Translations under genes and position numbers: made by a program
Origin: Candidatus Levyibacteriota bacterium
GTDB taxonomy: Bacteria; Patescibacteriota; Microgenomatia; Levybacterales; GWA1-39-11
NCBI GenBank assembly: GCA_039738415.1
Contig: JBCLLY010000001.1
Location: 53,621 to 117,620 of the forward strand
DNA: 64,000 bases
Reading direction: 5' to 3'
Notes under the pieces: generated by a model
Database searches by the model: none
Told to the model about the DNA's origin: nothing
What the model saw: only the letters and a program-made list of their open reading frames with translations
Shown here: piece after piece, positions 15,792-62,479 of the stretch
Position numbering within the stretch: position 1 is the stretch's first letter
How the letters are laid out: every line of letters starts with the position of its first letter

Positions 15792-15815
15792 GTATCATAT
15801 ATTAATATATAATAC
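15792..15815. promoter_or_regulatory. 24-bp palindrome GTATCATATATTAATATATAATAC (1 mismatch copy of the recurring operator-like palindrome)
   Basis: Seen at 4 sites (15792, 16254, 60106, 62456). Confidence 0.4.
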
Positions 15816-15855
15816 AATACCCTCAAATACCAAACAACATTCACTAAGCAGTAAA

Positions 15856-16248
15856 TTACGGCTTCATTCTACCCGAGGCAGCGCTAAGAGAATATGAGGC
15901 AAAGTCAACAAGAACTTTTTTTAACTCCTGCATTATTTTATCTTCATTTATTTTATTACGAGCAATTTCAAAACCCCTAGGTCGTAGGTTTAAAAATAGC
16001 TGCATCCTGTTTATGGTTATCTTTGTAACTCCTAGTGCTTCTGAAATCGCAGCATCATCAATCCCTTCTTGCAAGAGTGTTATAATCGCCAAACGCTTGG
16101 CAAGCATTATGCGTTCAGTTTCTGATAGTATTGAAAAGAGAAATTCTTTAGTTTCATTATTATTTAACTTCCCCAGAACCATTGCAAATACTTGTAAAAT
16201 TTCCTTCTTCGTCCTGGGGTCAAGTTCTCGTGGTGATAAATGCGGCAT
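15856..16248 (-). CDS. TrpR-like (YerC/YecD family) DNA-binding protein
   Basis: Helix-turn-helix region ...AKRLAIITLLQEGIDDAAISEALGVTKITINRMQ... typical of the TrpR-related family. Start placed at ATG (MPHLSP...) because the TTG at 16284 would translate the palindrome. Confidence 0.55.
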   Translation of the reverse strand: MPHLSPRELDPRTKKEILQVFAMVLGKLNNNETKEFLFSILSETERIMLAKRLAIITLLQEGIDDAAISEALGVTKITINRMQLFLNLRPRGFEIARNKINEDKIMQELKKVLVDFASYSLSAASGRMKP

Positions 16249-16253
16249 ATTTC

Positions 16254-16275
16254 TATCATATATTAATATATGATA
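16254..16275. promoter_or_regulatory. perfect palindrome TATCATATATTAATATATGATA immediately upstream of the TrpR-like gene start (candidate operator)
   Basis: Perfect 22-bp inverted repeat 6 bp from the ATG. Confidence 0.45.
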
Positions 16276-16737
16276 TATCGTCAAGCTACTTTAAGTAAAC
16301 AATTATGGAAGAATAGCAATGTACTTAAATGTACTTAAATGTGCTTATAAGAGAATCTCTCCTTGTCTTCCATAAGCCATATATAGAACAAGGTCTTTAA
16401 CTTTCTAAAAATTCGCGTTTTAATATTAAAGACGAGGCGAAAACCAAAATAAAAATTAAGCAGTTTATGATTAAATCTACCCCAACCTTTCTATTGGAAA
16501 ATCTTCAACTACTCGTTTGTGAATTATATATCGATATATAATTCACTGATATAAAAGGCTAATTTGAATATTGACACTCTGGTTGAACACTATTTAAAAG
16601 CTAAAAATCTGCTCTACCACCGGCAGCTTTTATGGAATATGAGGCTAATCTCACTAACATGTTTTTTATTTCTCTCATTGCCTGATCCTGATTTATTTTA
16701 GACATAGGCAGTTCAATTTTGCTATGATATAACCTAA

Positions 16738-17406
16738 GTGGAAAAAGTAAAAAAGCATATCAAGGAAAAACAGCTCACTGTCTCAAGGCACTGGAAATCC
16801 CTCCTGATTTTTGGTGTTGTATTTTTCACTATATTTATAATTTTTACCTTCATGGTTAGAGCAAATATGCTAACTGCTTTTGACTTTGATGCAACAGTAA
16901 GACTTCAAGACGATATTCCACTAAGATTTGACTCCTTCTTTTCAACGATTTCCATTCTCGGACGGTTTGAGTACACTTTTGGGGCATTTGTATTTGCTTT
17001 ACTATTTAGAAGACGAATTTTAGGCATAATCCCCTTCTTCTTATTTGGATTCGCGCACGTAATTGAGTTAATCGGAAAAACTATTTTAGAACATCCGGGA
17101 CCACCCCGTATGTTTTTACGCTCTCAATTCGGCGATTTCCCTGGACTTTATGTGTTTACAAATGGGTCTTATCCATCGGGTCATTCTCTACGGATAGTAT
17201 TTCTATCAATCGTATTTACTTACTTTATATTTAATTTTAAAAGACTTCCAAAACATATTAGGTTTGCGCTTTTTGCGCTTATCTTCGCGGTATTTTTTAT
17301 AATGCTCATATCCCGTGTAAGCTTGGGCGAACACTGGACAACCGATGTTATAGGGGGGTCACTTCTGGGTGCTTCTTTTGCCTTCTTAGCGCTAATTTTT
17401 CTTTAA
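16738..17406 (+). CDS. PAP2 family membrane phosphatase
   Basis: Multiple TM helices plus PAP2 motif SYPSGHS and a later SRxxxxxHxxxD-like block. Confidence 0.6.
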   Translation: MEKVKKHIKEKQLTVSRHWKSLLIFGVVFFTIFIIFTFMVRANMLTAFDFDATVRLQDDIPLRFDSFFSTISILGRFEYTFGAFVFALLFRRRILGIIPFFLFGFAHVIELIGKTILEHPGPPRMFLRSQFGDFPGLYVFTNGSYPSGHSLRIVFLSIVFTYFIFNFKRLPKHIRFALFALIFAVFFIMLISRVSLGEHWTTDVIGGSLLGASFAFLALIFL

Positions 17407-17415
17407 AATAGAGGG

Positions 17416-17589
17416 TTACTTCAGCTTATCTTCTTCCTTGTGCGCCGTCTTTTTTTTGCAAGTACGACAGTACTTTACCAATTGAAGCTTTTCAGGTGTA
17501 TTTATCTTATTTCTACTAGTAATGTAATTGCGTCGTTTACAAACTTTACAATCAAGCCCTAATTTTAGTCTTGTACCTTTTTTTGCCAT
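17416..17589 (-). CDS. rpmG: 50S ribosomal protein L33
   Basis: 57-aa translation MAKKGTRLKLGLDCKVCKRRNYITSRNKINTPEKLQLVKYCRTCKKKTAHKEEDKLK with two CxxC pairs. Not in the ORF track because it is under 60 aa. Confidence 0.8.
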   Translation of the reverse strand: MAKKGTRLKLGLDCKVCKRRNYITSRNKINTPEKLQLVKYCRTCKKKTAHKEEDKLK

Positions 17590-17671
17590 GAGGGTAATTA
17601 TAAATTATAAACTTTAAATTAGCAATATATTTGAAGGTATTTAATGTCAGTTAATCCGAGATAATCTTGAA

Positions 17672-17760
17672 TCCTAAATCTTAGGTCTTAAGTCTTAGGT
17701 CTCAAGTCTTAGGTCTTAAGTCTTAGGTCTCAAGTCTCAGGTCTTAAGTCTTAGGTCTTG
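17672..17760. repeat. tandem repeat of about 14-bp unit (AGTCTTAGGTCTYA)
   Basis: cttaggtcttaagtcttaggtctcaagtcttaggtcttaag... Related copy at 43600-43625 in reverse orientation. Confidence 0.8.
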
Positions 17761-17783
17761 AGCATTACACTATTTGAGCCTTC

Positions 17784-17804
17784 GGTCCCGCTTAGCGGGA
17801 CGAC
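17784..17804. repeat. recurrent hairpin GGTCCCGCTTAGCGGGACGAC (copy 1 of at least 7)
   Basis: Other copies at 21897, 29627, 38578 (TTT-loop variant), 38804, 38861 and 56952. Confidence 0.7.
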
Positions 17805-17844
17805 CTAGTTCTTATCCCAGTCGTTTCTTGTCGCGCAAAAAATG

Positions 17845-17916
17845 AGCCCAAAGGGGGAATCGGACCCCCGACCTAGTTCTTACCAAGAACTCGCTCTACC
17901 ACTGAGCCATTTGGGC
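17845..17916 (-). tRNA. tRNA-Thr (anticodon GGT)
   Basis: Cloverleaf: acceptor GCCCAAA, D-arm GCTC-AGTGGTA-GAGC, anticodon stem AGTTC/GAACT with loop UUGGUAA, T-arm GGGGG-TCCGATT-CCCCC. Confidence 0.75.
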
Positions 17917-17924
17917 ATACGCGC

Positions 17925-18045
17925 GACTTAGAACGACGGGATCCCGTACATCTAAGCCAATTCTATCAAATTGGCAAGATGGTACTGGGGCCAAGAACTC
18001 GCTCGGACCCTGTCCGCCTCTGGCGGAACTGAGCCATGCCGGCAA
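17925..18045 (-). pseudogene. degenerate tRNA-Thr-like fragment carrying a CCGCCAGAGGCGG hairpin insertion
   Basis: GCCGGCATGGCTCAGTT + CCGCCAGAGGCGG + ...GAGCGAGTTCTTGG shares D-arm/anticodon-stem sequence with the adjacent tRNA-Thr(GGT) but cannot fold as a tRNA. Confidence 0.4.
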
Positions 18046-18161
18046 CACTAGGCTATTTTATCAATAAGAATTACTAAAAACTAGACCTTGAATATATACT
18101 TTACGGATAGATTGGCTTGAAGGTAAACATATATTCAGGTAAAATATAGTTTGTGCTGCGA

Positions 18162-18231
18162 TGGCGGATCACCGCCCTAGCGGGACAAGGTGGTCAATCG
18201 CATCCCGACGTTACGTCGGGGCGCCCGTTTG
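18162..18231 (+). pseudogene. 5' portion of a degenerate tRNA-Tyr-like gene (acceptor and D-arm intact, anticodon arm replaced by TCCCGACGTTACGTCGGGG); ends in 42-bp direct repeat DR1 (18190-18231)
   Basis: GCTGCGATGGCGGA...GTGGTCAATCGCA...CGCCCGTTTG matches tRNA-Tyr(GTA) at 18485 in acceptor, D-loop and variable-arm segments. Confidence 0.45.
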
Positions 18232-18235
18232 CAAT

Positions 18236-18478
18236 ATGTATTATATTTATATATTAGTAAACTCAAGTGAAAAATATTACGTTGGAAGCACATCGCAGAT
18301 TGGAAAGAGACTAAAAAAACATAACGATGGCGGAGCTATTTGGACAAAAAAATACAGACCTTGGAAATTAATATACAGTGAGGAATTTGAACTAAAATCT
18401 GAAGCTGTAAAAAGAGAAAAACAAATAAAAGCTTATAAAGGCGGAAATGCATTTAAAAAACTTGTAAATAAAAAATAA
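18236..18478 (+). CDS. GIY-YIG nuclease family protein (small, YhbQ-like)
   Basis: MYYIYILVNSSEKYYVGSTSQIGKRLKKHN... has GIY-YIG motifs (YIYIL ... YVGST ... R ... H). Confidence 0.75.
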   Translation: MYYIYILVNSSEKYYVGSTSQIGKRLKKHNDGGAIWTKKYRPWKLIYSEEFELKSEAVKREKQIKAYKGGNAFKKLVNKK

Positions 18479-18484
18479 TCTAGT

Positions 18485-18569
18485 GCTGCGATGGCGGAGT
18501 GGTCAATCGCAACAGACTGTAAATCTGTCGCCCGTTTGGGCTACGTAGGTTCAAATCCTACTCGCAGCA
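18485..18569 (+). tRNA. tRNA-Tyr (anticodon GTA), long variable arm
   Basis: Acceptor GCTGCGA/TCGCAGC, anticodon stem ACAGA/TCTGT with loop CUGUAAA, variable arm CGCCCGTTTGGGCTAC, T-arm GTAGG-TTCAAAT-CCTAC. Confidence 0.85.
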
Positions 18570-18589
18570 CAAATAGTTAAGATTGCTCA

Positions 18590-18660
18590 GTGGTCAATCG
18601 CATCCCGACGTTACGTCGGGGCGCCCGTTTGGGCTACGTTCCGCCAAGGCGGAACTCGCA
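18590..18660 (+). pseudogene. 3' portion of degenerate tRNA-Tyr-like gene (DR2 18590-18631; T-arm replaced by TTCCGCCAAGGCGGAA; acceptor 3' strand CTCGCAGCAC intact)
   Basis: 42-bp near-identical direct repeat of 18190-18231, followed by tRNA-Tyr 3' end. Confidence 0.45.
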
Positions 18661-18841
18661 GCACACATTCAGTATTCGGTATTAAAGCATTAGTATATTA
18701 AAAGATTAAAAAACTTCCCCTCTACCACTTTTTAGAAAGTGACGAACATAAATCCCATAATGATTTCCTAAGCACTGGCAAGAAATCTTTATACTTAGAC
18801 TACAGGATGTTTATAACCTGTGGACAAATTTAACTATGAGT

Positions 18842-19075
18842 TTATTCTCTATCTATAGGATAGTTTGGGGGATTATTGAGGTAATCTCTGGTCTGAAGAA
18901 TCCTTTTTGCAGCCTTTTTGGGGTCATCTACCTGTATTCCGTGTCCACCCTTAATCATTAAAACTACATCTATGGGCGGTGGGGATTGATTCGTAGGTTC
19001 ATATACATTAATTGTTTCGTCAGCAAGGGGACGCCTTGCAAATGGCATAAGGACGGGCTGTTTGGAAATCCTCAA
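18842..19075 (-). CDS. hypothetical small protein
   Basis: 77-aa ORF only. Confidence 0.2.
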   Translation of the reverse strand: MRISKQPVLMPFARRPLADETINVYEPTNQSPPPIDVVLMIKGGHGIQVDDPKKAAKRILQTRDYLNNPPNYPIDRE

Positions 19076-19847
19076 AAAACCTGAAGCTATAGTATCGTCA
19101 ATATCTACTGCAATAAATTGGCAGCACTTCTGTCCTCTGTCAGTATTTGCCTAACAAATTCAGGCCTTGCGATAGTTCATGAGAAATAAGGTGAGGGTTG
19201 GATTTTTTTGAAGTGAAATCGATTTTCTATTTTTTTATGCCTGATTTGACACTACTTCTCATGAGACGCAAGCTTTTGGCTCAAATACTATCTTGCGTAA
19301 CTTGCTAAGAAAAAGTACACGAATTGTCTTCCTCTCCATCTCAATTTCCTAATAACTGCTGTCATACCCCATCACCCCCTCTCTATTAATATGCAAATAG
19401 CCCAATATGCAAATTTCAAATGGGTCATTTGAATTAATTAACTTGTTAATTTTTATTGATTTCATAATTAATGCTTTAACCTTCTAATCTTTTAATTTTT
19501 AAATCTTTTAATACTGTTCCTCTCCCCTGATCTCTTGATTTACATCCGGTGTTGCAAAACTCTGCTCCATCTCAACCACAAAAAATGAAATCATTAGAAC
19601 GGACACGATAAAGAAAAAAAATATTCTTTTCGGATGCGTGAAAAATTGGCTGTTCTGTTTAAAAGATATTAAAATTCTCATGGATATATCCATTGAATAG
19701 CTTCATTTGAACCTAGTCAAATCGGCTTTCATTTTGCATAATATTGCATATAATTACATAGTATTGTATACTGAAAATTAGAATAATTTTCAGATAGATA
19801 TAATAGTAGAAATACAGTAGATATAAATTGATATTGATATTAAACAA

Positions 19848-20258
19848 ATGGATACGAATAGCAACAACATAAAGGGTAAATATATTCCTTTAGATAAGCT
19901 CGAGATTTATCAGCTTTCACGAGAATTATCGTCTCTCGGATGGAAAGTCTATCAAGTACTTGGAGCGAGAGAAAGAAATATCATGGGTGATCAATTCATT
20001 CGTTCAACTGACTCAGTAGGCGCAAATATTGCTGAGGGTTACAGCAGATTTCACTACTTAGACAGAATAAAATTCTGCTATACCTCGCGTGCGTCGCTTA
20101 TGGAAGCCTCAAATCATTGGCTAGAACTCTTAAAGGAAAGGGGATTAGTTTTAAAAGCAGACTATGATTCTTATATCCTGAATTCGAGACTGTTATCCAT
20201 AAAACTAAATAATTATATAAGCTCTCTTTATAAAACAAGGTCCAAGAATTCACCATGA
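19848..20258 (+). CDS. four-helix-bundle protein (23S rRNA intervening-sequence protein family) copy 1
   Basis: GANIAEGYSRFHYLDRIKFCYTSRASLMEASNHWL signature. Confidence 0.75.
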   Translation: MDTNSNNIKGKYIPLDKLEIYQLSRELSSLGWKVYQVLGARERNIMGDQFIRSTDSVGANIAEGYSRFHYLDRIKFCYTSRASLMEASNHWLELLKERGLVLKADYDSYILNSRLLSIKLNNYISSLYKTRSKNSP

Positions 20259-20302
20259 ATATCTATGTATCAATGAATTTCAATAGTATATCTTAATTTA
20301 TC

Positions 20303-20578
20303 ATGGATAATTTTTACAACGTAAATCAGGCAGCCTATATCATGAAGGTCCACCCTCTAACTATCAGGAGGTATATCCGGGAGGGCAAGCTAAAGGCTGT
20401 AAAGCTGGGAGGAAATGTAAGAATAAAAGAACGTGATCTTCAATCATTTATGAAAGATTTTGAGCCGAGACAACAGGCAGACACCTTATCATTTAGAAGA
20501 ATTATTCAGCAGAAAGAATTTACAACCGCAGACCCATTCCTCCGACTTAAGGGGCGTGCGGCTACTGTGGAACTTTAA
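20303..20578 (+). CDS. excisionase-family helix-turn-helix DNA-binding protein
   Basis: VNQAAYIMKVHPLTIRRYIREGKLKAVKLGGNVRIKERDL matches the MerR/Xis-type HTH_17 pattern. Confidence 0.6.
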   Translation: MDNFYNVNQAAYIMKVHPLTIRRYIREGKLKAVKLGGNVRIKERDLQSFMKDFEPRQQADTLSFRRIIQQKEFTTADPFLRLKGRAATVEL

Positions 20579-20579
20579 C

Positions 20580-20667
20580 CATGAATTATGAATAATGAAG
20601 TAAGAAGCATGAAGTAGGAATTATGAAGCATGAAGCAGGAAGCATGAAGTATGAATAATGAAGCAGG
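20580..20667. repeat. heptanucleotide tandem array (CATGAAG/TATGAAT units)
   Basis: It fills the whole intergenic spacer and runs into the first codons of the next gene. Confidence 0.8.
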
Positions 20668-21040
20668 GAAGATAAAAAATTTTACCGATCTAAATGCATG
20701 GAAATATAGCCATAGTTTGGTTTTAGAAATTTATGAAATTACCAAGATTTTTCCTAAAGAAGAGCAATTTGGACTCACCAATCAAATAAGAAGAGCAGTC
20801 GTATCAATAAGTTCAAATATTGCTGAGGGATTTAGCAGAACTTCCTATAAAGATAAGTCTCATTTCTATTCAATGGCGTTAGGTTCTTTAACAGAGGTTC
20901 AAAACCAACTTATGATTGCGCGTGATTTAGGATACTTTTCAGTAGAAAAGTTCAATGAGTTAATAAAGGTCAGCATTACGGTAAGTAAACTTTTAAATGG
21001 ACTGCTTAAAAAATCAAAAACCATGATTCGTGACTCATGA
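20651..21040 (+). CDS. four-helix-bundle protein copy 2
   Basis: NIAEGFSRTSYKDKSHFYSMALGSLTEVQNQL signature. Confidence 0.75.
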   Translation: MNNEAGKIKNFTDLNAWKYSHSLVLEIYEITKIFPKEEQFGLTNQIRRAVVSISSNIAEGFSRTSYKDKSHFYSMALGSLTEVQNQLMIARDLGYFSVEKFNELIKVSITVSKLLNGLLKKSKTMIRDS

Positions 21041-21078
21041 TTCATGATTCGAGTTTAGGATTTAGAATTTAATTAATT

Positions 21079-21501
21079 ATGGCACTATCTAAAAAAGTAA
21101 TACTTGCCCCCGACTCTATCTATGCGTACATAGACCGTGTGTCTGAAAAACACCAGCAGGCGGTAGCATTTTTCCGATATTTTTCACAAGAGCATTACCG
21201 GCTCTTCATTGATTGCGTAAGTCTAAACAAGGTGTACGAGGACATATATCTTAAAATGAGCCAGGATTTGGCAAAGGATTTCATAAAGATTATAAGTGTC
21301 TCAGATATTAATATAGTCTACCCTGATGAAGGAGAAACAAAGGCAGCAATAAAGGCTTTGATTAATTACCGTACGCTTGATTTAACTTTCTCCCAAGCCA
21401 TTCTTTCAGTTGTAGCAAATAGAAGAAGCATTAATCAGGTGGTTACATTCTCTTATTTGCCTCCATTATTTGGTCTGCAAACGTTCTATTTACCGATATA
21501 G
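21079..21501 (+). CDS. hypothetical protein
   Basis: 140-aa ORF flanked by heptamer arrays on both sides. Confidence 0.3.
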   Translation: MALSKKVILAPDSIYAYIDRVSEKHQQAVAFFRYFSQEHYRLFIDCVSLNKVYEDIYLKMSQDLAKDFIKIISVSDINIVYPDEGETKAAIKALINYRTLDLTFSQAILSVVANRRSINQVVTFSYLPPLFGLQTFYLPI

Positions 21502-21507
21502 AAAGAA

Positions 21508-21633
21508 GAATGCTTCATTCTTCATACTTCATACTTCCTGATTCATGCTTCATTCTTCATACTTCATACTTCCTGATTCATGCTTCATACTTCATGCTTC
21601 CTGCTTCCTGATTCATACTTCATGCTATATATC
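21508..21633. repeat. heptanucleotide tandem array (ATGCTTC/ATACTTC/CTGATTC units; reverse complement of the 20580 array)
   Basis: About 18 units. Confidence 0.85.
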
Positions 21634-21809
21634 AAAAGGTTAATTAAGATATCAATATGTATCGTAATAATGCTAGTTTTGTCAGCAACCCCCGCACCCA
21701 CGGGACTTATCGATCGGGGAATTGGGTGCGGGGCAAAAAAACCACAACTAATTATCTAATTCAATTAGAGGATTTTGAAATGCTATTTATTTTGCTATAA
21801 TTACTTATC

Positions 21810-21881
21810 GCCGTCTTAGCTCAGTGGTAGAGCAGCTGTTTTGTAAACAGCAGGTCTAGGGTTCGAATCCCTAAGACGGCT
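21810..21881 (+). tRNA. tRNA-Thr (anticodon TGT)
   Basis: Acceptor GCCGTCT, D-arm GCTC-AGTGGTA-GAGC, anticodon stem GCTGT/ACAGC with loop UUUGUAA, T-arm TAGGG-TTCGAAT-CCCTA. Confidence 0.85.
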
Positions 21882-21888
21882 CAACAAT

Positions 21889-21944
21889 GTAGAGCATCCC
21901 GCTAAGCGGGACGGGTCGCGAGTTCGAATCTCGCCTCAGGCTCA
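21889..21944 (+). pseudogene. tRNA-like 3' fragment (D-stem 3' half, CCCGCTAAGCGGG hairpin as anticodon arm with TAA triplet, T-arm GCGAG-TTCGAAT-CTCGC, acceptor 3' strand, no 5' half)
   Basis: Read directly; lacks a 5' acceptor partner. Confidence 0.4.
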
Positions 21945-22082
21945 AATTTTGGCAAGCACGACTTGTACTGGGATAAACAGTCCTTCGACAAGCTCAGGAT
22001 TAGAAACAGGTCTAGGGCTTGCCCCGTATAGCCGCCACCGTGAGGCAAAGACGTAGACTTTGCGAACGGGAAGGTTTATGCG

Positions 22083-22107
22083 GGGTTCGAATCCCTAAGA
22101 CGGCTCA
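22083..22107 (+). repeat. 25-bp direct repeat of the tRNA-Thr(TGT) 3' end (GGGTTCGAATCCCTAAGACGGCTCA), about 200 bp downstream of the gene
   Basis: Identical to 21859-21883. Confidence 0.8.
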
Positions 22108-22141
22108 TAAAATTTTCTGCTAAATGGTACTGAAATTCAAA

Positions 22142-22374: not shown

Positions 22375-22405
22375 TTGACATGAGGTGGGGGGGGGAGTGT
22401 TTAAT
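22375..22405 (+). promoter_or_regulatory. sigma70-like promoter TTGACA-19bp-TTTAAT with a G9 homopolymer (22387-22395) in the spacer
   Basis: The paralogous promoter at 23641 has G5 and a 17-bp spacer. Confidence 0.5.
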
Positions 22406-22414
22406 ATATATTAT

Positions 22415-23527
22415 ATGAGAGTTTTTCTGCCTAAAAGATCAAAGAAATCAATTTCGGTCATAGGGTTGATCGTAGTATTAATAAACCTTATGGTATTACC
22501 TCTTTTTGTAAGTCAAGTTGATGCCGGAACTTTTACCAGCCGTACAGTAACCATCTCTGACTCACGGGCAGGAAACACCGGCACAACGTATGATTTTGCC
22601 TTTACCGTTGTCGCAACCACAGCAATCAAGCAGTGGAACATTAAGTTTTGTACTGTTACAGGAGCCTACGATGACGCTTGCACAACACCAACCGGAATTG
22701 TAACAACCGGCGCAGCCATCGGATCAGACAACGTAACCGGCTCCGGCAGAACTAACACGTTTGGAGGAAACGGTGTTTTACAAACAGTTGTTACCACTCC
22801 TTCTACCCAAAGCCCGACAGGGGTTACTGTTTCTTACACCGGAATCACAAACCCAACAACAGCCGATACCACCTTCTTTGCCCGTATCATTACATATTCA
22901 GATCCGGGAACAACAGAGATTGACAGTGGGACAGTTGCCGCTGCCATTTTAACCTCCACCTCAATTGCCGTAACTGCCGCCATTGACTCAGCGCTTACTT
23001 TTACTGTGGCAGCTGTCAATAGCGGAGGAACCGTCAATGGAGCAACCACCAATATTACCACCACTGCTATCCTCATTCCTTTTGGGACGCTTTCTTCCGG
23101 TTCAACCAAAATTGCCGCTCATGACTTGACAGTGGAAACAAATGCTTCTGGCGGATACACGACCACTGTCAAGGCAACCGCTACTCCACCTTTAGTTAAT
23201 GGCTCAAATAATATTGATGTCTTTACCGGTGCTAATTCAAATCCAACAATTTGGAGTTCACCGGGTGGTACTGCCAACTCTGTTAATACCGGATTCTTTG
23301 GGTATACCACCAATGATGCGACTCTAGGCACAGGCACAGCCGACAGATTTACAGATACGGGTAATGAGTGGGCCGGAACTACCACCTCTCCTTTAGAGGT
23401 TGCCTTTTCCGCAACCGGTGCTTCTTCAGAGACAACAAGGGTAGGCTGGCAAGCTGAGGTTAACAGCATCCAAGCCGCAGGATCATATACCGGAACTGTT
23501 ATTTTAACGACTACGCCAACGTATTAA
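22415..23527 (+). CDS. Thr/Gly-rich secreted surface protein, tandem paralog A (signal peptide; C-terminal ...GSYTGTVILTTTPTY)
   Basis: Start set at ATG MRVFLPKRSKK. The track start GTG 22385 would translate the G tract. About 95% identical to paralog B. Confidence 0.6.
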   Translation: MRVFLPKRSKKSISVIGLIVVLINLMVLPLFVSQVDAGTFTSRTVTISDSRAGNTGTTYDFAFTVVATTAIKQWNIKFCTVTGAYDDACTTPTGIVTTGAAIGSDNVTGSGRTNTFGGNGVLQTVVTTPSTQSPTGVTVSYTGITNPTTADTTFFARIITYSDPGTTEIDSGTVAAAILTSTSIAVTAAIDSALTFTVAAVNSGGTVNGATTNITTTAILIPFGTLSSGSTKIAAHDLTVETNASGGYTTTVKATATPPLVNGSNNIDVFTGANSNPTIWSSPGGTANSVNTGFFGYTTNDATLGTGTADRFTDTGNEWAGTTTSPLEVAFSATGASSETTRVGWQAEVNSIQAAGSYTGTVILTTTPTY

Positions 23528-23640: not shown

Positions 23641-23669
23641 TTGACATGGAGTGAGGGGGAGTGTTTAAT
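23641..23669 (+). promoter_or_regulatory. sigma70-like promoter TTGACA-17bp-TTTAAT with a G5 tract
   Basis: Duplicated with gene B; the same architecture is seen at 49382-49410. Confidence 0.5.
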
Positions 23670-23678
23670 ATATACTAT

Positions 23679-24791
23679 ATGAGAGTTTTTCTGCCTAAAA
23701 GATCAAAGAAATCAATTTTGGCCATAGGGTTGATGGTAGTATTAATAAACCTTATGGTATTACCTCTTTTTGTAGGTAAAGCCAATGCCGACACCCTCAC
23801 AACCCGCAATCTAACCATCTCTGACTCACGGGCAGGAAACACCGGCACAACGTATGATTTTGCCTTTACCGTTGTCGCAACCACAGGAATCAAGCAGTGG
23901 AATATTAAGTTCTGTACTGCTGCGGGAGCCTACGCTGACGCTTGCACAACACCAACCGGAATTGTAACAACCGGCGCAGCCATCGGATCAGACAACGTAA
24001 CCGGCTCCGGCAGAACTAACACGTTTGGAGGAAACGGTGTTTTACAAACAGTTGTTACCACTCCTTCTACCCAAAGCCCGACAGAGGTTACTGTTTCTTA
24101 CACCGGAATCACAAACCCAACAACAACGGATACCACCTTCTTTGCCCGTATCATTACATATTCAGATCCGGGAACAACAGAGATTGACAGTGGGACAGTT
24201 GCCGCTGCCATTCTCACCACCACCTCAATAGCCGTAACTGCCGCCGTTGACCCAGCGCTTACCTTTACTGTAGCTGCTGTCAATTCCGGAACCGTCAATG
24301 GAGCAACCATCAATGTGACGACTTCAACTGCCGTCCTTATTCCTTTTGGGACGCTTTCTTCCGGTTCAACCAAAATTGCCGCTCATGACTTGACAGTGGA
24401 AACAAATGCTTCTGGCGGATACACGACTACTGTCAAGGCAACCGCTACTCCACCTTTAGTTGATGGCTCAAATAATATTGATGTCTTTACCGGTGCTAAT
24501 TCAAATCCAACAATTTGGAGTTCACCGGGTGGTACTGCCAACTCTGTTAATACCGGATTCTTTGGGTATACCACCAATGATGCGACTCTAGGCACAGGCA
24601 CAGCCGACAGATTTACAGATACGGGTAATGAGTGGGCCGGAACTACCACCTCTCCTTTAGAGGTTGCCTTTTCCGCAACCGGTGTTTCTTCAGAGATAAC
24701 AAGGGTAGGCTGGCAGGCTGAGGTCAACAGCATCCAAGCCCCAGGATCATATACCGGAACTGTTATTTTAACGACTACGCCAACATATTAA
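23679..24791 (+). CDS. Thr/Gly-rich secreted surface protein, tandem paralog B
   Basis: 370 aa; tandem duplication unit about 1266 bp. Confidence 0.6.
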   Translation: MRVFLPKRSKKSILAIGLMVVLINLMVLPLFVGKANADTLTTRNLTISDSRAGNTGTTYDFAFTVVATTGIKQWNIKFCTAAGAYADACTTPTGIVTTGAAIGSDNVTGSGRTNTFGGNGVLQTVVTTPSTQSPTEVTVSYTGITNPTTTDTTFFARIITYSDPGTTEIDSGTVAAAILTTTSIAVTAAVDPALTFTVAAVNSGTVNGATINVTTSTAVLIPFGTLSSGSTKIAAHDLTVETNASGGYTTTVKATATPPLVDGSNNIDVFTGANSNPTIWSSPGGTANSVNTGFFGYTTNDATLGTGTADRFTDTGNEWAGTTTSPLEVAFSATGVSSEITRVGWQAEVNSIQAPGSYTGTVILTTTPTY

Positions 24792-24808
24792 GCTAAAAAA
24801 AATTAAAA

Positions 24809-52062: not shown

Positions 52063-52065
52063 GTA

Positions 52066-55987: not shown

Positions 55988-56100
55988 ACATTAGGTTAGC
56001 ACCTAATAGTATTTAGTATCAAGTATGGGGATATGGAGCCGCTTTGATAAGACTTTATACTACTTGATTTATTTCAATACATTGATACAATTGTATTGTA

Positions 56101-56336
56101 TGAGTAACTATGTAGTAACCAATATTAGACTTGCCGAAGAGGACTATTTGAGACTAAAGGAGGAAGCGGCAAGAGGAAGAAAAAGTTTTTCAGCTGTTAT
56201 CAGAGAGAAAATATCGATTAGAAAAGCCGATGATAACTATGCAGCAAAACTGTTGTCTGTAAGTGGTAATTGGTTTGATAAGTCTGAATATGATGCAAAT
56301 AGAACAGAACTTGATAAAAGGCTATCCTTTTCATGA
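56101..56336 (+). CDS. vapB: VapB-type antitoxin (ribbon-helix-helix-like)
   Basis: Small ORF overlapping vapC by 4 bp (ATGA). The perfect 12-bp palindrome ATACAATTGTAT sits at the start, a candidate operator. Start set at ATG MSNYVV. Confidence 0.45.
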
Positions 56337-56725
56337 AAAAAATACTGCTCGATACTTCAATCATCATAGATTTTCTCAGAAGAAAAGATAAAGAACATAG
56401 TCTTTTTTATGCTTTTGCAAAAATTAACACTCAATTTTATACTTCAATTATTACTCATTCAGAACTATATGCAGGTAAAAGTGTATGGACTGATACACAA
56501 GCACCAAAAGATCTTGAGTCTATATTTTCAGGGATTGAGCTGCTCCCTTTGCAGGAAAAAGTTTCAAAAAAAGCAGGTGAAATAAAAGCTACCACTGGTC
56601 TTGATCTCATTGATTCAATTATTGCAGCTACTGCAATAACAGCAAGTCTTCCTCTTCTTACCCTAAACATTAAGGATTTTAGAAAGGTTAAAGAACTTAT
56701 ACTTGAACTTCACCCAACTCTGTAA
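56333..56725 (+). CDS. vapC: PIN-domain toxin VapC
   Basis: MKKILLDTSIIIDFL... with PIN acidic residues; 130 aa. Confidence 0.7.
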   Translation: MKKILLDTSIIIDFLRRKDKEHSLFYAFAKINTQFYTSIITHSELYAGKSVWTDTQAPKDLESIFSGIELLPLQEKVSKKAGEIKATTGLDLIDSIIAATAITASLPLLTLNIKDFRKVKELILELHPTL

Positions 56726-57026
56726 TCATAAAACCAAAAAAACTCATGGCAAACGGAGTCGAAGAAATCTTCATTTTTCGAGGAAAGTCCGATAACTATT
56801 TCATAATGTCATTCTGGCGTAGACCAGAATCTATTTCCAAAACTGAACTCTATTCCCTTTTACTTATTCTCTATTACCTATCTGGGGTGTGGTGCCCCCG
56901 CCTTGTCCTTTCGGACGCGGCGGGGACGGATTTGAAAACGTGCCCTCCTTCGTCCCGCTAAGCGGGACTATGGCGGGCTAAGCAGGTCATGCGGCATTTG
57001 CCCCGCTTTCCGAGGCGTGCTTGGCT

Positions 57027-57242
57027 CTATAACGAGCCGGATGCTTTGGATCCGAACTGCTCAACCTGAACTTTTCCATACTCGCGAAGGTGTCTTGGCT
57101 TGAGTTTGCCTTTTTCAAGCAATATAGCAAGCTTTTTCAAGTCCCTTCTGAGCTGAAACGGACAAGTTCCGGATGCCCGCGTAGGGAGTTCACCAGGGCG
57201 GACTTCCAACGATTGAACCACAGAAGTTTTCTGGGCGTTCAT
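57027..57242 (-). CDS. hypothetical small protein in GC-rich islet
   Basis: 71-aa ORF; flanked by the repeat GCCCCGCTTTCCGRGGCGTGCTTG. Confidence 0.25.
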   Translation of the reverse strand: MNAQKTSVVQSLEVRPGELPTRASGTCPFQLRRDLKKLAILLEKGKLKPRHLREYGKVQVEQFGSKASGSL

Positions 57243-57361
57243 GGTATTTCCTCCTTCTAGCCTTTCCAGGCACTTGTACCCTTCGGCGAGCCTCAGGGTT
57301 TGGGTGTGAATCTAGGCTTTTTAGGGGTTCAACCCATAATAGGGGTTGAACCCCTATATTG

Positions 57362-57661
57362 TCACCGCTGATCTAGTGGGGCAGCGTAACCTCTCAAGTC
57401 GGCACCATCTATAAAGATGCTTTCAAGATTAAGCCTTGCTTTTAAAAGCCGCTCACGGACTTCATCGGAATTATCCTTTTCGGAGGCAGCAAGCGCAGCC
57501 AAATACCCGATAATGGCCTTCTGAAGCTTGCGCTTCTCTGCTTTTGCTTTCACTGCTTGATACAACCGAAAATTCGGCAAAACCTCACCAAGATCGATAC
57601 GCGCTAGGAGTTGTCGGCGAATCTCCTCACGATATTCTTCAGATGACTTACTGGTTGCCAT
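57362..57661 (-). CDS. hypothetical small protein in GC-rich islet
   Basis: 99-aa ORF; same flanking repeat upstream (57680-57702). Confidence 0.3.
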   Translation of the reverse strand: MATSKSSEEYREEIRRQLLARIDLGEVLPNFRLYQAVKAKAEKRKLQKAIIGYLAALAASEKDNSDEVRERLLKARLNLESIFIDGADLRGYAAPLDQR

Positions 57662-58254
57662 TGGATCTCCCTTTCTTGCCCCGCTTTCCGGGGCGTGCTT
57701 GTATCCTTCATTGAGCTCAGGATTTGGGCGTGAACTTCGAAAGTGTTGGCAGGGTTCAACCCTGTCACTTATGGAGTGGGTTCGCTCTTTTGAAGCTTTT
57801 GCTTGATGTTATCGATAACCATGCTTCCCACTATGGGAATACACGCTATGAAAACGGTAAGGACTGCTCCGAGAAAAAGGAAAGCTCCCCCTACCTTGCG
57901 AACGATTTGCACCTACGCCTCCTCATGTGTGATTGCGGTTTTACCCGAAATTGTGAAGTTAAAAATTACTAGTTACTAGAATCCAGTTACTAGTCTGACC
58001 TGCGTATTTTCAAGGAGCTTCACTTCTTTCGAAGTGACGCAGACCCGTCAAAATCGCTCTTTAAGGCGTGTATGAATAATACCTGAAGCCTTCAAGTAAG
58101 ATATGTCGGGTCAATGTGCTGCCTAGCGCAGCCAACAGAAACGCAAGCAATCCGCCGATGAGGCGGAGCGAAGTTGACCGCCTAAGCGATTACGCAAATT
58201 ATACTCCCGGAAAGCAATAAATTCAAACTATGGGTTAAGTTTATGCTAGAGGCT

Positions 58255-58380
58255 AGATACTGAATACTGGATACTGAATAATGAATAATGAATAATGAAT
58301 AATGGATACTGAATAATGAATAATGAATACTGAATACTGAATACTGAATACTCTATACTGAATAATGAATACTAGATACT
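58255..58380. repeat. heptamer tandem array (ATACTGA/ATAATGA units)
   Basis: Read directly. Confidence 0.85.
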
Positions 58381-58732
58381 ACTTTGTGAGGTTTTCGAGT
58401 CTGTCAGCGGTTCTTTTACTTCCAATTACGATTATATATGTTCCTATCACAAAACAGCTTCCTTTTATCAAAAATACGCCAACTGAAGCTAAATCTGTGT
58501 AGGAAATCTGAAGATAAGTGTTAACTGCGTCTATTATTATGCCTAATGCGAGGAATAATACTCCCGTTCCGATTGTTTTAAATCCATGCGCGAGTATCCC
58601 GCTTCCGAATTTTTTCGTTACCTGATACATGATAACTGAGGCTGTAACTGCGGCAAACGCAGCGATAAATGACACTCCCTGAACGAGAATTGTTAAAAAT
58701 TGAAGATTTTGTAATATTTCCATGGGCAGCAT
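58379..58732 (-). CDS. small multi-TM membrane protein (hypothetical)
   Basis: 117 aa with 3-4 hydrophobic helices. Confidence 0.4.
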   Translation of the reverse strand: MLPMEILQNLQFLTILVQGVSFIAAFAAVTASVIMYQVTKKFGSGILAHGFKTIGTGVLFLALGIIIDAVNTYLQISYTDLASVGVFLIKGSCFVIGTYIIVIGSKRTADRLENLTK

Positions 58733-58737
58733 AAATT

Positions 58738-59325
58738 TTAATTACTATTTGATTGTTGCATATTATCTGTTTTGTTTTCAAGTGGAGTCTGTGGTTGCGA
58801 TGCTATTGGATTATTATTTAATTCTGATAATGCTTTATTTATACTATCCATTTCTTCTTTCGGAAATTGTCCTGCTCCAGTATTTGACTGAGGGGAATTT
58901 GCTGAAGATATTACCTCTGGAGTAGCTACGGCTACATCTGAAAATGGATTTGCTCCCATAACAGCTGGCTCAGGATTTTGGGTTTTAACTTGTGGATCCT
59001 GAATAGAAGATGCTGAAACCGGAGGAAAAACAGAACCTGAAATAGCGCTTGTTTCTATTACTGCAATACCGGGATAAGTGGCAAGAATTGACTCCATGGT
59101 TTTTTTCACAATCAAGCCAGAGAGTTCTACAAATTCATTTATGAGAAGCTGTAATGTTCTTTGCGCGTCTCCCTGAATACTTATTACTTCACCCTGCTCG
59201 CTCATCTCAATTCCCTGCACATTTTTAACCTTCGCAAGAGTAATATCCGGACCAAGAACAATAATCTGCTTTTTTATAAGCTCGGTAAATATTTTTTTAT
59301 AGTCGGAATCGCTTTGCGGCTGCAT
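58738..59325 (-). CDS. hypothetical protein
   Basis: 195-aa ORF with a Q/N/P-rich C-terminal tail. Confidence 0.4.
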   Translation of the reverse strand: MQPQSDSDYKKIFTELIKKQIIVLGPDITLAKVKNVQGIEMSEQGEVISIQGDAQRTLQLLINEFVELSGLIVKKTMESILATYPGIAVIETSAISGSVFPPVSASSIQDPQVKTQNPEPAVMGANPFSDVAVATPEVISSANSPQSNTGAGQFPKEEMDSINKALSELNNNPIASQPQTPLENKTDNMQQSNSN

Positions 59326-59434
59326 AATTTTTTAATTTTTAATTTACAATGAAATCTAAATTATTAAATATTTTATTTTTTAAACATTTTAAATTGATTA
59401 AAAATTTAAAATTTCGAATTTCAAATTTGGCTTC

Positions 59435-59806
59435 CTATTCTCCAATCATTTCTTTTACTTTAGTAACTAAATCTTCAGGTGAAACCTGATATTTGAGTAT
59501 GTATCCTATTGCACCCAAATTCAAAGCCTCTTTTACCATGTCGTCGTGTCCGAAATTTGTGAGCATGGATACTTTCATACTTGCAGTATTTGGATTTGCT
59601 TTAATATTTTTTAAAGTCTCGTTTCCGCTCATCTCAGGCATCATCTGATCAAGTAAAATTAGGTCAAATTGCTGAGTTTGGAGCAGGTCTAGAACTTCTT
59701 TTCCATTTGATGAAACTGCTACGTCAAATCCACCGCTTTTTAAGGCTGTTTGAAAGACGTTTCTCGTCTCCTCCTCATCATCAACTAAAAGAATTCTTTT
59801 TGCCAT
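59435..59806 (-). CDS. response regulator receiver domain protein (CheY-like, single domain)
   Basis: RILLVDDEEETR...DLILLDQMMP...K receiver motifs. Confidence 0.8.
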   Translation of the reverse strand: MAKRILLVDDEEETRNVFQTALKSGGFDVAVSSNGKEVLDLLQTQQFDLILLDQMMPEMSGNETLKNIKANPNTASMKVSMLTNFGHDDMVKEALNLGAIGYILKYQVSPEDLVTKVKEMIGE

Positions 59807-60105
59807 AATGGTTAAGGTAATAGTTATTAAAAATTAGGTAATAGTTAAAACTTCAAACTTGTATCTATTTTCTATTACCTACTACCTATTGCCTCTCTTC
59901 TACCGTATCACCTATACAAATAAAAATCAAGCTGTCGCTTAATTAAAGTTAAATATCGGCTGTGTCAAGAAAATTATTTTGCAATTTTGATATAACAAGG
60001 TCTCGTTAGGGAAAGAGGTTAAGCTCCCCTTCAAAACTATTACACCACTTACTATCATCATGCCTTTTTAATTTTTATAAATTTTTAAACCTAAAGTTTT
60101 CCTCC

Positions 60106-60129
60106 ATCTCCATGTGTATCATATATTAA
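60106..60129. promoter_or_regulatory. perfect 24-bp palindrome GTATCATATATTAATATATGATAC (operator-like), 58 bp upstream of the next CDS
   Basis: Identical copy at 62456-62479. Confidence 0.45.
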
Positions 60130-60187
60130 TATATGATACAGAATAACTAACAACTACTGCTTAGCCAATTTGTTATAATAAATTATT

Positions 60188-61471
60188 GTGAGCGAGCAAG
60201 GTGAAATAAGACCATTTGAGATTAATGAAACAATAGATGTCAAAAAGCCCCTTTTTGATGCTGGTGCATTTACTATAACCCACGCATCAACAAGCGGATT
60301 TGAGCTTAAAATAGACCATCCTCTACGAAGAAGAACACCTGACCAGCCCCTTCCTTTAAATACTACAGAAAAAGAACTACTAAGAGATAACTTAAAAGGA
60401 AATCCTGAAAAAGGAATTGGGAGTGAAATTGATTTTGTGAAAAATCAAGCCAAAAAAACGGCTGGAAAAGAAGACCGTGAACCATCCACGCAAGACTATA
60501 CAGATAAATTTGCTCCAAATGTGGGCATTAGAAATATTTACGAAGAAAAGGTCGCTGGAAGAGACGTCCTTCATGTTGACACAAAACCTGTTACATTCAA
60601 ATTATACAGTGAATTAATTACACGTGAGCAAGCCGGCAGAGAAGACTTGATGGGATTGGGCGAATCTACAGGTACAGCTGCCGCAATTTTTACAAAAGAC
60701 GGAAAGCTGATTCTGCAATATAGGGGGAAAGGAAATAGAGCCTATGGCAATATACCTGGAGCAAGCGCAGCTGGAATGCTTAAAGGAAAATTTAATAGAG
60801 AGCAAGAAACTGATGAAAACGGAAAAGTTCGTAATGTAAATAGAGGAATTTTAACTGATGTTAATCCTCTTGCAAATATAAATACAGAAATATCCGAAGA
60901 GCTTCAAGTTGACCCAAAAGATGCTGATATAATACTCGTTGGAATAGCTCATGACGAGATAAAACCCCACAGTGAATTTATGTATATAGCAACTCTTGAT
61001 AAAACCTCCGATGAGTTAGCTGAAAAAGGACTTATACCTGACGATATGGAAGGACATGACTTCAAGGAGAGATATTTTACAATTGATGGCACACCTGAAG
61101 CTATAAGAACTCTTTTAACCAAAGTTAAATGCCCTCTACCCTCAACTCATTCTGCTGCATTTTTTATGGCAGGATATATGAAGGTGGGTGAACAGGATGG
61201 AGATAAAGCAGCCGAAGAATGGGCAAGACAAGTTGCGCTTGAAATAAAGTCTAACGCTGAAGAAATCGACCGCTTTGTAATTGAAAACCACGATAATTTC
61301 CCTTCACAAGCTCCTGGTAAACCAGAAAGAAGCAAAATAGGATACGACCCACTCTATCTTCCGGAAGAACAAGGTCTTCCATCACTATTAGATGAGCTTG
61401 TCAGAACTCAACTCGTCTCTGAAGCTATGTATTGGAAGCTAAAAAGCAAATATGATCCTCAGAATGAATAA
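60188..61471 (+). CDS. hypothetical protein (427 aa)
   Basis: No family recognised. GTG start in the track. Confidence 0.4.
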   Translation: MSEQGEIRPFEINETIDVKKPLFDAGAFTITHASTSGFELKIDHPLRRRTPDQPLPLNTTEKELLRDNLKGNPEKGIGSEIDFVKNQAKKTAGKEDREPSTQDYTDKFAPNVGIRNIYEEKVAGRDVLHVDTKPVTFKLYSELITREQAGREDLMGLGESTGTAAAIFTKDGKLILQYRGKGNRAYGNIPGASAAGMLKGKFNREQETDENGKVRNVNRGILTDVNPLANINTEISEELQVDPKDADIILVGIAHDEIKPHSEFMYIATLDKTSDELAEKGLIPDDMEGHDFKERYFTIDGTPEAIRTLLTKVKCPLPSTHSAAFFMAGYMKVGEQDGDKAAEEWARQVALEIKSNAEEIDRFVIENHDNFPSQAPGKPERSKIGYDPLYLPEEQGLPSLLDELVRTQLVSEAMYWKLKSKYDPQNE

Positions 61472-62369
61472 CAAGACTGGCTTAAATCCTGAAATGAAAA
61501 ATCCAGTTCAAGCTGCTTTTATTTTTGATGTAGACGGGGTAATTACTAACCCGAGAGAAAAAAGGGTTACGAAAGTAGAACTGCTTGAAAGACTGGCAAC
61601 AGAGCTTGAATTAAATACTCCAGTAATACTTAACACCGGCCGTTCAAATGAATGGATGATTGAGCGCGTAATACTACCTCTAAAAGACAAGCTTAACGAT
61701 AAAACCGCCCTATCTAACTTTTTTGCAGTTGGGGAGAAAGGCTTAACGTGGGTATCATTCGATGAGGATGCAAATATCAAACAAGGAGTATTTAATAGAA
61801 ATGGAGCTCTGGTTGAGGGATTTGACCTGTCTGTGTTTTTGGATAATCAAACCGTTGAACATTTCCAAACGCTGGAACGTGAAACAAAACAACTAATTGA
61901 CTCCAAATATTCTCACTCTACTTTTTTTGACGCAACTAAAAAAGCTATGATTTCAACCGAAATGCACGACGGATATGACCAACCAAAATATGCACTTGAG
62001 CAAATCCAATTTACCGCTGACCTTCATGAACTCCTGAAACGAGAAGGTCTTGAGGGTAAATTTAAAGTCGACCCGACGACCATTGCAACAGATATTCAAA
62101 TTCCTGAAGCTGGAAAACATCTTGGCGCAAAACATATTCTTGACTGGCTTAAATCGGCAAATATTAATCCAAAGCATTTTATAACCTTTGGCGATAGTGC
62201 CTCAGACCTTGAGATGGCGGATTATCTGAATGAGCAAAACCTATCTGTTGATTTCATATTTGTGGGTGGAAAAGAAAATCTCAGCATTACTCGCCCCTAC
62301 CGTATTCATTACACAACCAAATCCTTTGATGAAGGGACACTGGAATATCTTTCTGGTCTTGCTTCTTAA
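61452..62369 (+). CDS. HAD-superfamily hydrolase
   Basis: Motif I FIFDVDGVITNP, plus later HAD motifs (GRSN..., GDSASD). Confidence 0.6.
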   Translation: MILRMNNKTGLNPEMKNPVQAAFIFDVDGVITNPREKRVTKVELLERLATELELNTPVILNTGRSNEWMIERVILPLKDKLNDKTALSNFFAVGEKGLTWVSFDEDANIKQGVFNRNGALVEGFDLSVFLDNQTVEHFQTLERETKQLIDSKYSHSTFFDATKKAMISTEMHDGYDQPKYALEQIQFTADLHELLKREGLEGKFKVDPTTIATDIQIPEAGKHLGAKHILDWLKSANINPKHFITFGDSASDLEMADYLNEQNLSVDFIFVGGKENLSITRPYRIHYTTKSFDEGTLEYLSGLAS

Positions 62370-62455
62370 ACGTAATTTAGTCAGTACGTACTTATATAAG
62401 ATATAACGGAACCCCTTTTACTTTTACTACCTAAAGACTTAACAAATCTTACCCC

Positions 62456-62479
62456 GTATCATATATTAATATATGATAC
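62456..62479. promoter_or_regulatory. perfect 24-bp palindrome GTATCATATATTAATATATGATAC between convergent genes
   Basis: Identical to the copy at 60106-60129. Confidence 0.4.

Follow-up and report, generated by a model that had tools for sequence, protein, structure and literature searches.

What does a short palindrome do when it recurs almost unchanged along a genome and one of its copies abuts the start of a regulator gene? The question arises in a stretch of 64,000 nucleotides from Candidatus Levyibacteriota bacterium (assembly GCA_039738415.1, contig JBCLLY010000001.1, positions 53,621 to 117,620), which we call the window, where the 24-bp palindrome GTATCATATATTAATATATGATAC adjoins a gene for a TrpR-like helix–turn–helix (HTH) protein. 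Our analysis suggests that the palindrome is very probably the operator of that protein, judging from where its copies lie, how they are conserved, and how they co-vary with the recognition helix. An original prediction had reported four copies, and this count is borne out: a search allowing up to 3 mismatches finds exactly four matches to GTATCATATATTAATATATGATAC in the 64-kb window, and none of 100 dinucleotide-preserving shuffles of it contains any match. The start given there for the third copy, 60106, was a typing error for 60116 (coordinates of all features are collected in Table 1). Perfect palindromes with arms of at least 9 bp are rare, occurring at just nine loci in these 64 kb, three of them copies of the focal motif. 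The four copies share no sequence beyond 24–26 bp, which marks the motif as a discrete site and not a piece of a larger repeat; a miniature inverted-repeat transposable element, or any other longer repeat, was rejected on the same ground. In its full form, the site reads TG-TATCATA-N8-TATGATA-CA.

Copy 2 lies between a −35 box and the ATG of the trpR-like gene, spanning the promoter spacer and the −10 hexamer, and in our promoter scan the combination TTGACG-18-TATGAT scores 10/12, joint best in the region. Transcription is predicted to begin on the A of the ATG (16248), so the mRNA would be leaderless, and the 5 nt preceding the ATG contain no visible Shine-Dalgarno sequence. These 5 nt are also the measured distance between the 22-bp core and the start codon of this minus-strand gene, which had been put at 6 bp. 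The −35 box ends 30 nt before the ATG in the window and 27–37 nt before it across homologous loci, with a mode of 31 nt; the mode corresponds to a spacer of 17–18 nt, a −10 hexamer of 6 nt, and a discriminator of 6–7 nt, which again places the start at the ATG in a leaderless geometry. TTGACA-like boxes stand at the matching place in 30 of 64 homologous loci. When boxes with at least 5/6 matches are counted, they precede 22 of 52 upstream copies (12 of them perfect) and 1 of 39 downstream copies (Fisher p=6e-6). By position, then, the palindrome overlaps the core promoter of the regulator's own gene, in the window and in the homologous loci alike. It appears to occupy the classical position of a repressor site, with arms constrained to resemble −10 hexamers (TAnnnT), a constraint that leaves position 4 of the half-site free to vary. 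A dimer of the TrpR-like protein bound at this site, which we call O1, would exclude RNA polymerase and result in negative autoregulation. Of the mechanisms considered here, this one is best supported: from directly computed properties (site positions, conservation, covariation, and protein fold), we infer binding and repression, as well as looping or a roadblock and any ligand.

The adjoining gene had been described as encoding a TrpR/YerC-like HTH protein. Its TrpR fold is borne out, though the protein falls below the ortholog cutoffs of both TrpR and YerC/HisR. It matches PF01371 (Trp_repressor) at 38.9 bits against a gathering cutoff of 27 (E=9e-10); its scores of 19.6 bits for TIGR01321 (TrpR equivalog, cutoff 67.25) and 18.8 bits for TIGR02531 (YerC/YecD, HisR, cutoff 42.2) make it an ortholog of neither. 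The AlphaFold2 model (pLDDT 87.7) has seven helices in the all-helical TrpR fold, with the HTH in helices D and E and the seventh helix (residues 104–125) C-terminal to the TrpR core. The top 38 Foldseek matches in the PDB are all TrpR or TrpR-like (HisR-type) proteins, most at a probability of at least 0.9, with target-normalised TM-scores of 0.58–0.71 among the best matches, and the solved structures closest by sequence are of the HisR type (3FRW, 3G1C). The product carries no catalytic domain and is a pure HTH protein. A profile search of the family returned 762 cluster representatives at E<=1e-10, and the protein belongs to a subfamily of TrpR-family HTH proteins that is widespread across Patescibacteria, the candidate phyla radiation (CPR). 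In the literature, we found nothing specific on the motif or on TrpR-type regulators in CPR.

Is the arrangement particular to this genome? A scan seeded by a protein alignment, and hence blind to the palindrome, found 554 metagenomic relatives, of which the best 80 were kept. We scored a bracketing pair where a 22-mer from the 45 nt before the ATG recurred at no fewer than 17 of 22 positions within 140 nt past the stop codon. Such a pair is present in 49 of 58 non-redundant loci, as against 0/58 in coding sequence and 3/54 further upstream (Fisher p=1e-23). The bracketing sites are palindromes or quasi-palindromes of 22–26 bp whose sequence depends on the lineage, with both copies of one locus co-varying, and the co-variation holds also in close relatives at 70% and 63% identity. 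Among the operator types are TATCATA-TATTAATA-TATGATA, TATCATA-TATCGATA-TATGATA, TATAATA-AGTTAGTA-TATTATA, TAAAGTA-TATTAATA-TACTTTA, and TTCAATA-TAATGATA-TATTGAA. Within ±8 kb of the homologous genes, the bracketing two are usually the only copies. Copy 1 of the window is, on this comparative evidence, a conserved second predicted operator (O2) past the gene's own stop codon, and bracketing appears to be a family-wide layout.

A second scan, seeded by the palindrome itself (TATYATATATTAATATATRATA, one genome per species), gave 77 loci. In it, the exact 22-mer with C/G arms occurs solely in metagenome-assembled genomes (MAGs) of Patescibacteria type, namely from Levyibacteriota, Shapirobacteria, and Peribacteria, one “Patescibacteria group” MAG, and some bins labelled Gammaproteobacteria. 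The palindrome abuts a TrpR-like homologue in five MAGs, at a protein identity of just 38–45%, and, save for one syntenic gene pair beside miaB, the trpR-like gene alone is a neighbour common to several genomes. The all-AT variant TATTATATATTAATATATAATA, found in Bacteroidales and other taxa, was set aside as unrelated, being scattered AT-rich background in many phyla. A phage origin was likewise rejected, since a viral contig collection held no exact match.

The sites also follow the protein. The recognition helix reads T-[VI]-x-R/K, and its R/K residue corresponds in the alignment to Arg84 of E. coli TrpR, which is listed as contacting DNA (PMC9413887). Arg is present in 26 of the 32 loci with G at half-site position 4 (TATGATA), and three of the six exceptions carry C at that position. 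Lys is present in 15 of the 16 loci with another base there (TATTATA, TACTATA, TAATATA, TACTTTA, TATTGAA), giving Fisher p=7e-7 for Arg/Lys versus G. A neighbour-joining tree, which is built from short sequences and is indicative only, places Lys-type proteins in at least five separate positions beside Arg-type sisters, with operators differing as predicted (for example, L138/L149, L089/L079, and L097/L083). This pattern is hard to explain unless the TrpR-like protein reads these sites, and Arg81, which corresponds to TrpR Arg84, would then determine specificity by recognising position 4 of the half-site. Placement between −35 box and start codon, conservation over 58 loci, and covariation of helix residue with base thus strongly support the proposal of the original prediction that copy 2 is an autoregulatory operator. 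Nor is the motif just another dispersed repeat, an outcome which that prediction had allowed for; it is specific to one transcription factor and co-evolves with it.

The same data bear on whether the palindromes might work as RNA hairpins, either as 3′-end stabilisers or terminators or as 5′ structures, and not as DNA sites. What is conserved is an exact sequence that tracks the recognition-helix residue, not base-pairing, and the −35 box lies 3 nt upstream, so that the promoter copy cannot be transcribed. Perfect copies do fold at −10 kcal/mol (z=−4.2), copy 4 with its flanks reaches −14.6 kcal/mol, and copies 1 and 4 stand just past stop codons. However, the stems are AU-only with no U-tract after them, the terminator scan does not call them, asymmetric-centre variants fold weakly (−5.6 kcal/mol), and a search against Rfam 15 gave no match to the palindromes, returning only tRNA-Trp and noise. 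We consider an RNA role extremely improbable.

If O1 is the repressor site, what would O2 do? One possibility is that it acts through cooperative O1–O2 looping over ~440 bp; alternatively, a protein bound there would form a roadblock insulating the unit from neighbouring transcription. Looping of this kind has well-known parallels in lac, where O1 is paired with an auxiliary operator at +401, and in lambda, where OR and OL flank cI-rex with the repressor gene between them. The likeness lies in a primary operator on the promoter and an auxiliary one a few hundred bp downstream. The present system differs in that the auxiliary site lies precisely past the stop codon of the repressor's own small gene, and in that looping is here a prediction without helical phasing. 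We rejected the downstream copy as a promoter for the next gene, because in 14 of 41 loci the next open reading frame (ORF) runs towards it, convergently, and because downstream copies lack −35 boxes (1/39).

Away from the trpR-like gene itself, one location of the palindrome recurs, and it is within a gene. Two MAGs carry the exact palindrome in a MiaB/RimO-type radical-SAM gene, in frame as YHILIYDT, and in both it equals the operator of the TF gene in the same MAG (L026 with L030, L035 with L061). MiaB homologues of other lineages carry, at the same hypervariable position, TGTATCATAAGTTAGTATATGATACA (L162), TGTATAATAAGTTAGTATATTATACA (L163), TATGATATATCGATATATCATA (L164), TATCATGTAACGTTACATGATA (L165), and TTTCATGATTTAAATCATGAAA (L166), the first three of which equal operator types found around trpR-like genes elsewhere. 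The encoded peptides vary (YHILIYDT, YHKLVYDT, YNKLVYYT, YDISIYH, and similar), and many MiaB homologues are without the palindromic segment. At this site, selection acts on the DNA and not on the peptide, and miaB appears to be a recurring external target of the system. An internal promoter at the intragenic site was considered and rejected, as no consistent −35 box lies upstream.

Some of the retrieved loci show further palindromes or paralogues. In L163, a more distant TrpR-like paralogue of 140 aa stands immediately upstream of miaB and is bracketed by palindromes of its own, CCATGTATTGATACATGG and ATGTATCAATACAT (L163:2420-2440 and 2910-2930). L167 has two Trp_repressor-family genes 4 kb apart (348-758 and 4702-5094); the TF of this relative is 70% identical, and the second gene (136 aa) has no obvious flanking palindrome. 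In Betzabe_MAG191, GTTTAAATGATTTAAATCATTTAAAC lies directly beside the focal site (L022:4051-4076), and its core recurs in the miaB of L166. The high-G+C Peribacteria chromosome JAHFJN01 (G+C 0.54–0.57) holds the exact AT-only 22-mer twice (L023:4931-4952 and L043:7588-7609), with no TrpR-like gene in the retrieved 8-kb stretches; one of these copies may sit inside or at the end of an ORF.

The remaining two copies of the window flank a different pair of genes. The core of copy 3 lies 48 nt ahead of the GTG at 60188. This GTG opens the gene for a 427-aa protein with no match in Pfam, and a gene for a HAD-IIB hydrolase comes next. In some homologues, the two are fused as single proteins of 665–730 aa (P0008, P0013, P0015), and the two products are therefore functionally linked; in the window, their genes (60188-62369) overlap by 20 nt. 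Copies 3 and 4 would be lineage-specific extra sites that bracket this two-gene operon as O1 and O2 bracket the trpR-like gene, and, together with O2 and the miaB site, they would act through looping, through a roadblock or insulation, or through both. Copy 3 is not preceded by a −35 box, and the promoter of the 60188 gene itself resembles an extended −10 element, TGTTATAAT at 60172-60180.

An extended −10 without a −35 box, with the start codon 7–8 nt further on, is seen both here (TGTTATAAT-N8-GTG, window 60172-60190) and in a second locus (TGGTATAAT-N7-ATG, L159:5985-6003), and leaderless or near-leaderless mRNAs seem common in this group of organisms. Copy 4 lies within a longer inverted repeat, TTACC..GGTAA (62439-62495), the hairpin with the energy given above; before it stands a promoter-like TTAACA-17-TATATT aimed into the convergent MBL-fold gene at its 3′ end. 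A CCTAAAG ~20 nt upstream is common to copies 3 and 4.

A gene held between two copies of one short sequence also invites an explanation by mobility, in which the palindromes are recombination sites of lox or dif type (arms of 7–9 bp around an 8-bp spacer) or resemble repetitive extragenic palindromic (REP) elements, and the site–gene–site unit is an excisable cassette. The anatomy of arms and 8-bp centre fits, asymmetric-centre copies stand in direct orientation, and the two copies of a locus evolve in concert, with identity reaching 28 nt in L168; yet the centres of a pair often differ by 1–2 nt (L116, L123, L103, L097, L089; the centres are unequal in L127 and L107 as well), which would block a tyrosine recombinase, and the −35 box of the promoter lies outside the bracket. 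The in-frame unit of 24 nt in miaB, a segment missing from many homologues, could be read as an insertion, as could copies 3 and 4, which are absent from a relative. However, the occurrence of different operator types by lineage at the same codon position of miaB fits an old site co-evolving with its TF better than repeated insertion, and no recombinase is found among the annotated neighbours. RAYT genes are likewise flanked by REPs, and such “REPtrons” share with our system a gene between short palindromes that occur also elsewhere in intergenic DNA, as well as a clade-specific repeat type. They differ in encoding an HUH/Y1 transposase, where the protein flanked here is a TrpR-fold HTH protein without a catalytic domain; in the present case, moreover, the upstream copy is part of a −35/−10 promoter, and copies number a handful (4 per 64 kb in the window, 2–5 exact ones per C/G-version MAG) and not the tens to hundreds of REPs. 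Mobility thus seems to us a very unlikely explanation.

Published operators of the TrpR family are palindromes of ~20 bp that end in TGTA...TACA and have an 8-bp spacer dividing the half-sites (PMC9413887); the focal site has both the ends and the 8-bp centre, but its total length is 26 bp. E. coli TrpR agrees with the present system in these two features and in fold and Pfam family, and its centre AGTTAACT is found in some variants here (L092). The E. coli trpR operator, too, overlaps the core promoter of trpR itself. The system described here differs from it in the length of the protein (130 aa), its extra C-terminal helix, and its non-orthologous status, in a site of 26 bp in place of 18–20 bp, in the second operator past the stop codon, and in the predicted leaderless mRNA. 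Among the neighbours examined, no tryptophan biosynthesis or transport genes (trp, aro, mtr) and no his genes lie beside the sites. HisR (YerC/YecD), the histidine repressor of Firmicutes, has 20-bp palindromic motifs that differ from lineage to lineage, and about half of the hisR genes regulate themselves (Ashniev et al. 2022, PMC9413887). The likeness to HisR thus comprises membership in the TrpR family, lineage-specific palindromes, and frequent autoregulation. Its Firmicutes consensus, cacTTTA-N6-TAAAgtg, differs from the sites here, and neither self-bracketing nor intragenic miaB sites have been described for it; in the literature that we searched, we found no description of the self-bracketing layout combined with an intragenic miaB site.

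Several observations weigh against reading all these palindromes as operators of the TrpR-like protein. At 26 bp, the site is longer than TrpR and HisR operators. In operators with an asymmetric centre, both copies stand in the same orientation, which a symmetric dimer alone does not explain. The Arg/Lys position of the recognition helix also contacts the ligand in E. coli TrpR, and part of the covariation could reflect something besides base readout. The spacing between O1 and O2 shows no helical phasing over 38 loci (Rayleigh p ~0.68), and a 10.5-bp periodicity apparent in the first four loci was gone at 38; the absence of phasing gives looping no positive support, and little phasing is expected at ~440 bp. 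As for distribution, the closest syntenic relative of the 427-aa/HAD operon (74% identity) has the palindrome at neither position, and its intergenic DNA has diverged too far for an insertion boundary to be drawn. Nor do the extra sites lie consistently near promoters, since some are in miaB and some between convergent genes, and no functional theme unites the adjoining genes, which in other genomes bear no relation to one another (RRF, UDG, DUF3800, a GT4 glycosyltransferase, a zincin, FTCD_C, and an HD-domain protein).

These last points decide how much of the proposed regulon stands. The original prediction had placed copy 3 upstream of 60188 and copy 4 between convergent genes, correctly in both cases, and had suggested that the copies may define a small regulon. 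A promoter-proximal regulon is only partly supported, as copy 1 follows a stop codon, copy 4 is flanked by convergent genes, the closest relative has neither copy 3 nor copy 4, and the miaB sites are intragenic. A coherent regulon was rejected on the lack of a common function and on the 427-aa/HAD homologues that do without sites in the syntenic relative, and a classical regulon is not demonstrated.

The same features would suit sites of chromosome organisation or anchoring, following the logic of parS, matS, or Noc, with the TrpR-like protein marking a few high-affinity sites, some of them within genes, and autoregulation as a by-product. The copies are few per genome, nearly invariant across very divergent genomes, and found between convergent genes and inside miaB beside neighbours without a theme, and one copy accompanies the gene of its own binder, a frequent situation with parS and parB. 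Yet the protein has a TrpR fold and not that of ParB, MatP, or SlmA, the best-conserved copy sits exactly on the −35/−10 core of a promoter, most loci have just the two bracketing copies within ±8 kb, origin and terminus markers are missing from the window, and a close relative has retained neither copy 3 nor copy 4. An organising role is in our view unlikely, and the RNA-hairpin, terminator, recombination-site, REP-like, and parS-like readings are all less well supported than an operator of the TrpR-like protein.

The window further contains what looks like the remains of another such operator-bracketed gene. A trpR-like relic lies upstream of the intact gene, and the palindrome GTGAATTATATATCGATATATAATTCAC is found 66 nt past the relic's stop codon; the 5′ part of the relic is now taken by a PAP2 gene (16738-17406, + strand). 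There is no second intact trpR-like paralogue in the window, just this 42-codon remnant. Relic and palindrome together are probably what is left of a second trpR-like unit, in tandem with the first, which has decayed but retained its downstream operator; this retention agrees with a site that belongs integrally to the gene unit.

On the other side, a co-directional gene for tRNA-Trp follows O2, with its own candidate promoter (15712-15684) and, further downstream on the same strand, an intrinsic terminator. The trpR-like gene has tRNA-Trp downstream of it in 6 of 64 non-redundant loci with varied operator types (L078, L079, L084, L091, and L112 among them), a frequency on which we rejected tRNA-Trp as a universal partner; it is a recurrent neighbour that may be a candidate member of the system. 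Seven loci have a tRNA Thr-Tyr-Thr cluster upstream of the trpR-like gene (L084, L089, L091, L098, L103, and L106 among them), as does the window. MiaB modifies tRNAs that read UNN codons, tRNA-Trp included, yielding ms2i6A37, and a link of MiaB and tRNA-Trp to the TrpR-like module is suggestive from these gene arrangements. Could the parts form one circuit? We propose tentatively, as a possibility that we regard as rather doubtful, a self-contained module in which a TrpR-fold gene set between its own operators and targeting miaB, ancestrally beside tRNA-Trp, would couple an amino-acid-type sensor to the supply or modification of tRNA-Trp through a roadblock or looping.

Table 1. Coordinates of the palindromes, the trpR-like gene and its predicted promoter, and associated features. 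Positions refer to the window unless a locus label precedes them.
Feature	Position	Strand	Remarks
Palindrome copy 1 (predicted operator O2)	15792-15815		1 mismatch; 40 nt past the trpR-like stop codon
Palindrome copy 2 (predicted operator O1)	16253-16276		2 mismatches, both at the outermost bases; inner 22 bp (16254-16275) perfect
Palindrome copy 3	60116-60139		perfect; within the 26-bp perfect palindrome TGTATCATATATTAATATATGATACA at 60115-60140
Palindrome copy 4	62456-62479		perfect; between the convergent stops of the HAD gene (62369) and the MBL-fold gene (62497)
trpR-like gene	15856-16248	minus	130-aa TrpR-fold HTH protein; presumed repressor of a Patescibacteria-type subfamily
−35 box TTGACG	16279-16284	minus	predicted trpR-like promoter
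−10 hexamer TATGAT	16255-16260	minus	right arm of the copy 2 palindrome
miaB in-frame sites	L030:937-958, L061:5316-5337, L162:405, L163:3524, L164:826, L165:10580, L166:10565		
tRNA-Trp(CCA)	15589-15660	minus	co-directional, downstream of O2
tRNA Thr-Tyr-Thr cluster	17844-17916, 18485-18570, 21810-21882		opposite side of the trpR-like gene from tRNA-Trp
28-bp perfect palindrome GTGAATTATATATCGATATATAATTCAC	16519-16546		inner 22 nt match the “CG-centre” operator type at 18/22, by inspection
trpR-like relic	16613-16738	minus	42 codons, 48% identical to residues 86-127 (tblastn E=2e-7)

Two neighbouring regions of the window are recorded here for completeness. The tRNA cluster (18161-21501) is interspersed with a GIY-YIG nuclease gene, an HTH_17/MerR-like gene, and two genes for four-helix-bundle proteins of the 23S-rRNA-intervening-sequence type. 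Beyond it, two adjacent ORFs of 380 and 376 aa (22385-23527 and 23661-24791) show the same antisense-ORF pattern and a higher G+C content, have no Pfam hits, and look like a tandem duplication.

Almost nothing is known of transcriptional regulation in Patescibacteria, most of which are uncultured. Our results give these organisms a widespread regulator family with a defined predicted operator, a promoter, and a likely specificity residue, and they document, by sequence, leaderless promoters of sigma-70 type. The architecture is unusual, with predicted operators at both ends of the regulator's gene and an in-frame site in miaB, and it lends itself to direct in vitro tests that need synthetic DNA and recombinant protein but no culture of the organism. 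If the tentative module linking this regulator to tRNA-Trp is real, it would be a previously unrecognised circuit, and its code of Arg for G and Lys for other bases would be simple enough to re-engineer.

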